From Escherichia phage vB_EcoM_SA21RB: a stretch of 64,000 nucleotides of DNA. The position numbers and the translations under genes are program-made. Below the pieces are notes generated by a model, which was not told the DNA's origin, did not search any database, and saw only the letters and a program-made list of their open reading frames with translations. The stretch lies in sequence record OL960580. The stretch is one strand, 5' to 3'. Within the stretch, counting starts at the first letter, position 1; each line of letters starts with the position of its first letter. Positions 44,781 through 45,847 of the stretch are shown in pieces.

Positions 44781-45641
44781 TTATACCGCCATTTTACCTT
44801 TAATTGGCGGATGAGATACATAGTTGTTAAGAACAAAATTATGCGGCTTTGCGAATTGACTCAACCAAAATACCTGCGATTCTGTGTCCCATTCATCAAA
44901 TTCATCTGGAAATTTTAATTGTAATTCGCATAAATCCATAGGTTCACGACGTAAAATTTCTTTACATTGTTCTACGTGATTCATATAGATATGAGTATTA
45001 CCACCAGAAAATATCAAATCTCCTGGAATAAGATTACACATCTTAGCTACAATATGAACTAACGTAGCATATGATGCAATATTAAATGGAAGACCGAGGA
45101 AAACATCTACCGAACGTTGATACCACTGCAAATCCAAATAGCCATTACGCACATTAAACTGATAGAACATATGACAAGGTGGCAATGCCATCTGCTTGAG
45201 TTCTGCCGGATTCCATGCTGAAACAATTTGACGTCTATCATTTGGCAGTTTTTTAATACGATCAACAACTTCTATAATTTGGTCTACACCACCAAAATCG
45301 CGCCATTGTTTTCCATAAATTGGACCAAGTTCACCACTATGATATCCTAAATCTTTTGCTTGATTTTCATAATTTTCATCCCAGACTGTTTTGCCTTGAA
45401 TTAATGAATCATGTTGAATTAATCGCAAATCATTGACATTTGTGCTTCCCGATAAAAACCATATTAGCTCAGCAATGCAAGCTTTCCAGGCGAGCTTCTT
45501 AGTCGTTACTGCAGGAAAACCTTTAGTTAAATCCCATCGTAATTTAGTGCCGAACAAAGCAATTGTTCCTGTGCCTGTTCGGTCATCGGTTTCATAACCG
45601 TTTTCCAGGATATCTTTAATTAAAAATTGGTATTGTTTCAT
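44781..45641 (-). CDS. td: Thymidylate synthase (uninterrupted, no intron)
   Basis: 286 aa from ATG 45641 (MKQYQ); track start is TTG; continuous reading frame. Confidence 0.93.
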   Translation of the reverse strand: MKQYQFLIKDILENGYETDDRTGTGTIALFGTKLRWDLTKGFPAVTTKKLAWKACIAELIWFLSGSTNVNDLRLIQHDSLIQGKTVWDENYENQAKDLGYHSGELGPIYGKQWRDFGGVDQIIEVVDRIKKLPNDRRQIVSAWNPAELKQMALPPCHMFYQFNVRNGYLDLQWYQRSVDVFLGLPFNIASYATLVHIVAKMCNLIPGDLIFSGGNTHIYMNHVEQCKEILRREPMDLCELQLKFPDEFDEWDTESQVFWLSQFAKPHNFVLNNYVSHPPIKGKMAV

Positions 45642-45847
45642 TAGTTCATCCAAGAATATGTAGAAGGATATTTGGCAAAGTTAGGCTTATATCCTAATTT
45701 AACCATTTGTTTTGCTTTGCGAGTAAATCCTAAAGAACGCTCACCTTTAAGATATTGTTTTGGTGTCATAGGCCCTTGATGCATCTGCCGACAAATAAAA
45801 AGGGCCATAGCATTAGGAACATCCTTAACTTTTAATTTATTGCTCAT
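45641..45847 (-). CDS. Hypothetical small basic protein inserted between frd and td
   Basis: 68-aa ATG ORF; ATGA overlap with the frd stop and TAATG overlap with the td start. Confidence 0.6.

Follow-up and report, generated by a model that had tools for sequence, protein, structure and literature searches.

In phage T4 the genes for dihydrofolate reductase (frd) and thymidylate synthase (td) overlap directly via an ATGA, an arrangement that a preliminary description of the DNA studied here had mentioned and that the T4 sequence bears out. The window (by which we mean the entire 64,000-nucleotide stretch of Escherichia phage vB_EcoM_SA21RB, sequence record OL960580, that was analysed) comes from a Tequatrovirus with ~97% identity over 24 kb to the phages ECP2301 and ESh26, and in it a 68-codon ORF sits between these two genes. 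This raises the question of whether the ORF is a genuine gene and, if it is one, whether it is a newcomer to the junction, the relic of a mobile element or an established resident, how it passes between phages, and what its product might do. The account that we favour, with some confidence, is that this member of PHROG 9550 is a genuine, dispensable accessory gene and an old resident of the site upstream of td, which is translated by coupling to its neighbours, acts through binding by its product, and behaves as a cassette comprising exactly one gene.

Architecture of the frd-td junction

On the minus strand, td (44781–45641) is a single continuous reading frame for the 286-aa thymidylate synthase; the intron of 1016–1017 bp that interrupts td in T4 and fFiEco06 is missing at the matching place, in agreement with the earlier statement that the gene is intron-free. 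Upstream of it, frd (45844–46428, minus strand), which is homologous to the frd genes of T4, T2 and fFiEco06, codes for a dihydrofolate reductase of 194 aa. The mechanical ORF call for frd reaches an upstream ATG at 46455; we place the likely start at the ATG at 46428 (MIELVF...), because comparison showed the frd genes of T4 and T2 to be 582 bp long. The 68-codon ORF with its TAA stop codon (45641–45847, minus strand), which encodes a 7.9 kDa basic protein with three predicted helices, fills the remaining gap exactly: frd ends in ...GTG TAT AAA TGA, the ATG of the ORF uses the same ATGA (45844–45847, minus strand), and the stop codon of the ORF shares one base with the td start codon in the sequence TAATG (45639–45643, minus strand). 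Both overlaps were read directly from the minus strand, and this reading confirms the exact fit first reported for this Lys/Arg-rich ORF. A search of the window for a second copy (paralogue) of the ORF found none.

No promoter-like or terminator-like site was detected at the junction. Both the ORF and td have weak Shine-Dalgarno matches (-3.5 and -3.1 kcal/mol, respectively), compared with -5.6 to -9.1 for most neighbouring genes. These weak matches, together with the stop/start overlaps, suggest a translational relay from frd through the ORF to td: the ORF would share a transcript with frd and td, and its translation would depend on termination-reinitiation coupling, with its ATG lying on the frd stop codon and its own stop codon on the td ATG. 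As for the proposal in the preliminary description that the ORF is embedded in a translationally coupled frd-td operon, the overlaps are present in the sequence, and the coupling itself is deduced.

A conserved small gene of the PHROG 9550 family

The 68-aa product matches the PHROG 9550 HMM along its whole length (E = 1.3e-45; residues 1–68 on profile positions 1–68 of 68). A tblastn search found the ORF in 237 phage records, 134 of which, belonging to Tequatrovirus and in some cases Dhakavirus, show at least 90% identity. It is 100% identical to ORFs of many Tequatrovirus records, most of which say "hypothetical protein", and its amino-acid identity falls from ~80% in Klebsiella Marfavirus through 68% (Enterobacter phage CIP9) and 60% (Serratia phage 4S) to ~43% in Phapecoctavirus (the phAPEC8 group). 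Against three other genera pN lies far below pS (dN/dS of 0.14/0.90 versus Marfa, 0.23/1.22 versus CIP9 and 0.30/3.7 versus 4S), and a dN/dS of about 0.1–0.2 indicates that purifying selection acts on the ORF. Amino-acid identity to Marfa is 81% for the ORF product versus 48% for Frd, and the GC and GC3 of the ORF match those of the adjoining genes. Judged by these comparisons, the 68-codon ORF is a genuine, conserved small phage gene. The alternative of a chance ORF that is not expressed would suit its short length and its weak Shine-Dalgarno match; however, conservation at the protein level from 100% down to about 30% across several phage lineages, the low dN/dS and the exact fit between two genes in every genome leave this alternative with next to no probability.

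The gene is already known, as PHROG 9550 and as a "hypothetical protein" in >130 T4-like genomes, and its finding is in this respect ordinary. At the outset it had been considered that the ORF might simply be a named gene of the T4 reference; T4 lacks it, and many other phages in GenBank annotate it. For instance, a PHROG 9550 gene lies between frd and td in Shigella phage pSs-1, vB_EcoM_ACG-C40, fFiEco06 and Marfa (gp177), as well as in Yersinia fPS and PYps phages, and the window ORF is the same gene as these entries, in the same position and with the same overlaps, and with no difference from them. The record of Dhakavirus JS10 (NC_012741.1; L014 1654–1860) does not annotate the ORF, which falls in an "intergenic" gap of 200 bp. 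In Yersinia phage PYPS2T the gene goes by the name "flagellar biosynthesis protein", which we take to be an annotation error.

Beyond these phages, an exhaustive HMM search of 1.84 billion representative proteins returned 11 clusters, one of which (P0026, a 1402-aa repetitive protein) looks spurious, and a profile search of a 5.8-billion-sequence collection returned 40 clusters, every one free-standing, with full-length members of about 66–108 aa and a few shorter gene calls of 42–58 aa. Searches of Pfam, NCBIfam, PADLOC and PDB sequences with the query and family members gave no match (for PADLOC, which collects proteins of defence systems, 0 families at E <= 1), and profile searches of PDB sequences with the alignments A1 and A3 gave nothing meaningful. 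A literature search found neither the peptide string nor a paper on the 68-codon ORF, and the supplementary files of one screen of accessory genes did not contain the ORF.

Alternative occupants of the junction across T4-like phages

In Marfa and PWKp16 (Marfavirus), CIP9 (Kanagawavirus), Serratia phage 4S and JS10, a homologue of the ORF is the next gene 5' of td, and its stop codon overlaps the td start; these td-adjoining homologues are 60–99% identical to the window ORF at the amino-acid level. In Marfa, PWKp16, CIP9 and 4S the homologue is preceded by one or two genes of about 111–126 aa, which, along with the 115-aa frd-td ORF of T2-type phages (RB32ORF229c), belong to phrog_1928. Since phrog_1928 occurs both ahead of the homologue and in the T2-type slot, the fullest gene order is frd - phrog_1928 - phrog_9550 - td. 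Within Tequatrovirus the slot is found in three states: with phrog_1928 only (T2, T6, RB32 and others; 363 records at >=90% identity), with phrog_9550 only (the window; about 134 records at >=90% identity), and with neither gene (T4 and FL18). Subtracting the two gene-carrying groups from the 514–562 records that match the flanks leaves an estimated small minority with the empty junction, a large part of which consists of T4 and its laboratory derivatives. Where a gene was seen in the slot of the sampled Tequatrovirus records, it was either phrog_1928 or the 68-aa ORF, never both. In Dhakavirus, Bp7 has an empty and intronless junction and JS10 carries the 68-aa gene; Jiaodavirus JD18 has phrog_1928 only.

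Like the 68-aa gene, phrog_1928 is a dispensable hypothetical family of the frd-td slot, and Marfavirus, Kanagawavirus and phage 4S have the two genes in tandem. Unlike the 68-aa gene, to which it is unrelated in sequence, phrog_1928 in T2 does not overlap its neighbours; spacers of 20 nt and 45 nt lie between it and frd and td. Records of the BASEL collection (WilhelmHis, L008 1678–2025, and others) annotate phrog_1928 as a "putative homing endonuclease". The T2 orthologue, taken without the BASEL copies, gave no Pfam, NCBIfam or PADLOC match, and the PHROGs entry for phrog_1928 carries no nuclease annotation.

The preliminary description had offered, as one of two readings, an accessory gene acquired at a known hotspot of mobile-element activity, and had treated the ORF as inserted relative to T4. 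That the gene is accessory stands: it is absent from T4 and T2, and the slot, which varies among T-even phages, has three states. An insertion relative to an ancestral T4 state does not stand, as the same gene adjoins td on its upstream side in T4-like phages of five or more genus-level groups. On this distribution the 68-aa gene has long occupied the slot next to the td start, and it is the T4-type empty junction that is rare.

The stretch upstream of frd varies just as much as the frd-td junction. Two small genes that are missing in T4 (46428–46673 and 46685–47017, minus strand) lie between frd.1 and frd; one encodes an 81-aa phrog_3183 protein, and its stop codon abuts the frd start, and the other encodes a 110-aa protein of phrog_3566 / Pfam DUF7247, which was not seen in the T2 and T4 stretches examined. 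T2 has an annotated 81-aa ORF, RB32ORF231c, that corresponds to the phrog_3183 gene by position, the criterion used for this match. Further, two segments, ~46051–46150 inside frd and ~44851–44950 at the 3' end of td, show 12–60% identity to T4, T2 and fFiEco06 with indels of about 21–34 bp, the remainder of frd and td being 90–98% identical, and many relatives cease matching at query position 1062 (about window position 44939). In the alignments these low-identity segments look like mosaic alleles inside both enzyme genes.

Distant homologues of the 68-aa gene, from phAPEC8 and metagenomic phage contigs, lie among small unannotated genes or near PIF1, DnaB and RNA-ligase genes, with no td within 3–4 kb; no neighbour family recurs around them, and context therefore yields no functional clue. 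This bears on the idea that the ORF is tied to thymidylate synthesis, either through a small product that partners with or regulates Td or Frd, or as a device that tunes td translation via coupling. That the ORF invariably precedes td in five genus-level groups of T4-like phages, its stop codon overlapping the td start, and that td itself has a weak Shine-Dalgarno match would be in keeping with this idea. However, T4, T2, Bp7 and JD18 make Td without the ORF, the Phapecoctavirus and metagenomic homologues have no td close by, and the conserved synteny of the frd-td-nrdA block explains the adjacency. A specific link of the ORF to Td is unlikely, and we give a role in thymidylate synthesis a low probability overall, preferring to regard the ORF as a dispensable accessory gene long settled at this site.

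A proposed exchange at the gene boundaries

The T4 junction equals the window junction minus exactly 204 bp between two AATGA repeats (...AAATGA|GCAAT...CTAATGA|AACAATA...), and Bp7 likewise equals JS10 minus exactly the 204 bp of the ORF. Since the 204 bp are gone from between AATGA repeats, the empty allele keeps an ATGA overlap. Between JS10 and the window, the ORF shows 97.6% nucleotide identity (dS 0.11), with the flanks at 78% for frd (dS 1.1) and 76% for td (dS 2.3); the frd and td flanks of JS10 are of the Bp7 type. The tract of high identity extends from the ATGA to about 40 nt inside td. Over the first ~40 nt of td (45601–45641, minus strand), alignment A4 shows the window to be identical to Dhakavirus (Bp7/JS10) and to have 6 differences versus T4/T2; this Dhakavirus-like segment is probably the right-hand edge of the exchanged tract. 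In fFiEco06, another Tequatrovirus, the ORF has 0 differences over 207 nt, and its flanks are 94–96% identical.

We read this pattern as the swapping of the gene by recombination between co-infecting T-even phages, also across genera, and the transfer may possibly have run from a Dhakavirus-like donor into Tequatrovirus. It counts against an exchange that the left crossover would need only about 14 nt of common sequence, which is short for homologous recombination. In the mechanism that we propose, the 204-bp unit would be lost by deletion between its terminal AATGA repeats, giving the T4 junction, and would be regained or exchanged via recombination in the conserved 3' end of frd and 5' end of td, including between genera. 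The cassette boundaries and the near-identity across genera, like the reality of the gene, its synteny and its alternative alleles, stand on direct sequence comparison.

A comparable modular shuffling of single small ORFs between T4-type genomes is known from the PeSL-flanked mobile ORF cassettes of the hyperplastic regions, reportedly described by Arbiol, Comeau and Krisch in 2010. Those cassettes have early-promoter/stem-loop flanks, whereas the window unit is bounded by overlapping stop and start codons inside an operon. A search found neither a promoter-like site flanking the ORF on either side nor, within 44700–47300, a hairpin resembling a terminator, and the unit is therefore not a PeSL-type cassette. 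A stronger version of the exchange would have the 204 bp as a self-contained cassette that recently spread through Dhakavirus and Tequatrovirus at exact gene boundaries by virtue of a host-specific advantage (counter-defence or host takeover) conferred by its product, a small basic protein whose fold would be unlike any solved structure; this version we consider doubtful.

Relationship to the td intron and mobile elements

Co-conversion by I-TevI at td is biased into exon I (PMC2988022), and for this reason we tested for an association of the ORF with the td intron. The ORF occurs with the intron in TOPO13, PYps15T, fFiEco06 (with I-TevI) and PM133, and without it in the window; phrog_1928 occurs with the intron in T6 and ECML-134, and without it in T2; the empty junction occurs with the intron in T4 and FL18, and without it in Bp7. 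With every combination of junction allele and intron found, a tie between the presence of the ORF and the intron or I-TevI was rejected. FL18 itself (labelled Mosigvirus; L007 1654–2959) combines a T4-type empty junction with an intron in td. The only ORF in this intron is short (55 aa) and, although annotated as a homing endonuclease, is apparently a degenerate form of I-TevI.

The second possibility raised in the preliminary description was that the ORF is a footprint of mobile-element activity. Put more specifically, it would be what is left of a mobile element, possibly in degenerate form, for example of a homing endonuclease gene standing by itself or of an ORF associated with an intron. 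The reputation of the td region for I-TevI co-conversion biased into exon I (PMC2988022), the polymorphism of the slot and the naming of its alternative occupant phrog_1928 as a "putative homing endonuclease" by one annotator all speak for this origin. Likewise, the seg and mob homing endonuclease genes of the T-even phages resemble the ORF in their presence/absence polymorphism between conserved genes, their sharp boundaries and their spread among related phages (PMC2988022). Unlike seg and mob, however, the ORF codes for just 68 aa, with neither a GIY-YIG nor an HNH domain; the predicted fold is all-helical, and conserved catalytic residues are absent. The ORF is full length, its length is constant, and it is under purifying selection; its product matches nothing in Pfam, NCBIfam or PDB sequences and gives no alignment with I-TevI; no D, E or H is conserved family-wide; the homologues are always free-standing proteins of about 66–108 aa and never part of a longer nuclease; its presence is independent of the intron; and phrog_1928 itself is without a Pfam or PHROG nuclease annotation. 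A homing-endonuclease remnant was rejected on the missing Pfam/NCBIfam match and I-TevI alignment, the absence of conserved D/E/H and the all-helical fold, and we regard the whole idea of a mobile-element footprint as very improbable and effectively refuted already.

Predicted structure and possible roles of the protein

The product (7.9 kDa, pI 10.26) has 13 K+R versus 2 D+E. A first AF2 model built from 15 close sequences was poor (pLDDT 62), and a Foldseek search of the PDB with that model came back empty; the model from a 30-sequence alignment reached pLDDT 86 and pTM 0.64, with helices at 13–24, 29–39 and 43–49 followed by an aromatic-rich C-terminal tail. As modelled, the fold is without known relatives. 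In alignment A3 (30 sequences) R20, M48, G52 and P55 are invariant and K4, K6, V7, P11, K34, F41, L51 and Y53 nearly so; in alignment A2 (20 sequences) K34, G40, M48 and G52 are invariant. H23 is invariant among the close relatives of alignment A1 only, and A3 has no D, E or H conserved across the family. There being no catalytic signature, the product should act by binding, most likely in a stoichiometric manner.

Like the small HTH DNA-binding proteins of the Cro/Xre-like kind, the product is strongly basic and is predicted to have three short helices; helices 2 and 3 are separated by a Gly (G40), which lies in an L-G-F/V-T/S motif and is invariant in A2. On account of the basic charge and the helix-Gly-helix motif, our preferred guess for the target is nucleic acid, which would be contacted via the HTH-like helix-Gly-helix unit and the Lys-rich N-terminal tail.

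A host-protein target, with a role in counter-defence or host takeover, is nearly as likely as nucleic acid. In its full form this alternative holds that the small basic protein does not act on nucleic acid and would instead inhibit, by binding to it, some protein of the host (a defence enzyme or one that depletes nucleotides, for example), its patchy and horizontally exchanged distribution reflecting host-specific selection. Such a factor could be expected to look as the ORF does: dispensable, polymorphic among close relatives, present as a near-identical allele in two genera that infect E. coli and Shigella, diverging along with the host genus (Klebsiella 80%, Enterobacter 68%, Serratia 60%), represented in unrelated large lytic phages within arrays of small early-type genes, and with a predicted fold that lacks known relatives. 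However, vertical descent within phage genera explains the divergence by host genus equally well, no PADLOC model was matched, and the ORF was missing from the supplementary files of the accessory-gene screen mentioned above. We accordingly treat a counter-defence or host-takeover factor as a tentative possibility, and retain as our main account the old accessory gene with a binding product, in which the translational coupling, the mode of binding and the function are the steps that we infer.

Discussion

These results are of use chiefly as a correction: the textbook overlap of frd and td in T4 turns out to be a minority allele, and in most sequenced Tequatroviruses the junction is occupied by either of two alternative small genes. 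The locus may serve as an example of how T-even phages swap single genes at exact start/stop overlaps and leave a translationally coupled operon undisturbed. The protein is one of thousands of uncharacterised small phage proteins and will matter in itself only if a phenotype is found; the interest of the locus is modest, and lies in the alternative alleles of the slot, the exact-boundary exchange between genera and a confidently predicted fold with no known relative. Should the recent spread of the cassette through a host-specific advantage prove true, the protein would be the founding member of a new functional family. In any event, the alleles with the ORF, with phrog_1928 and with neither gene provide natural, isogenic-like contrasts for testing the roles of small genes in these phages.
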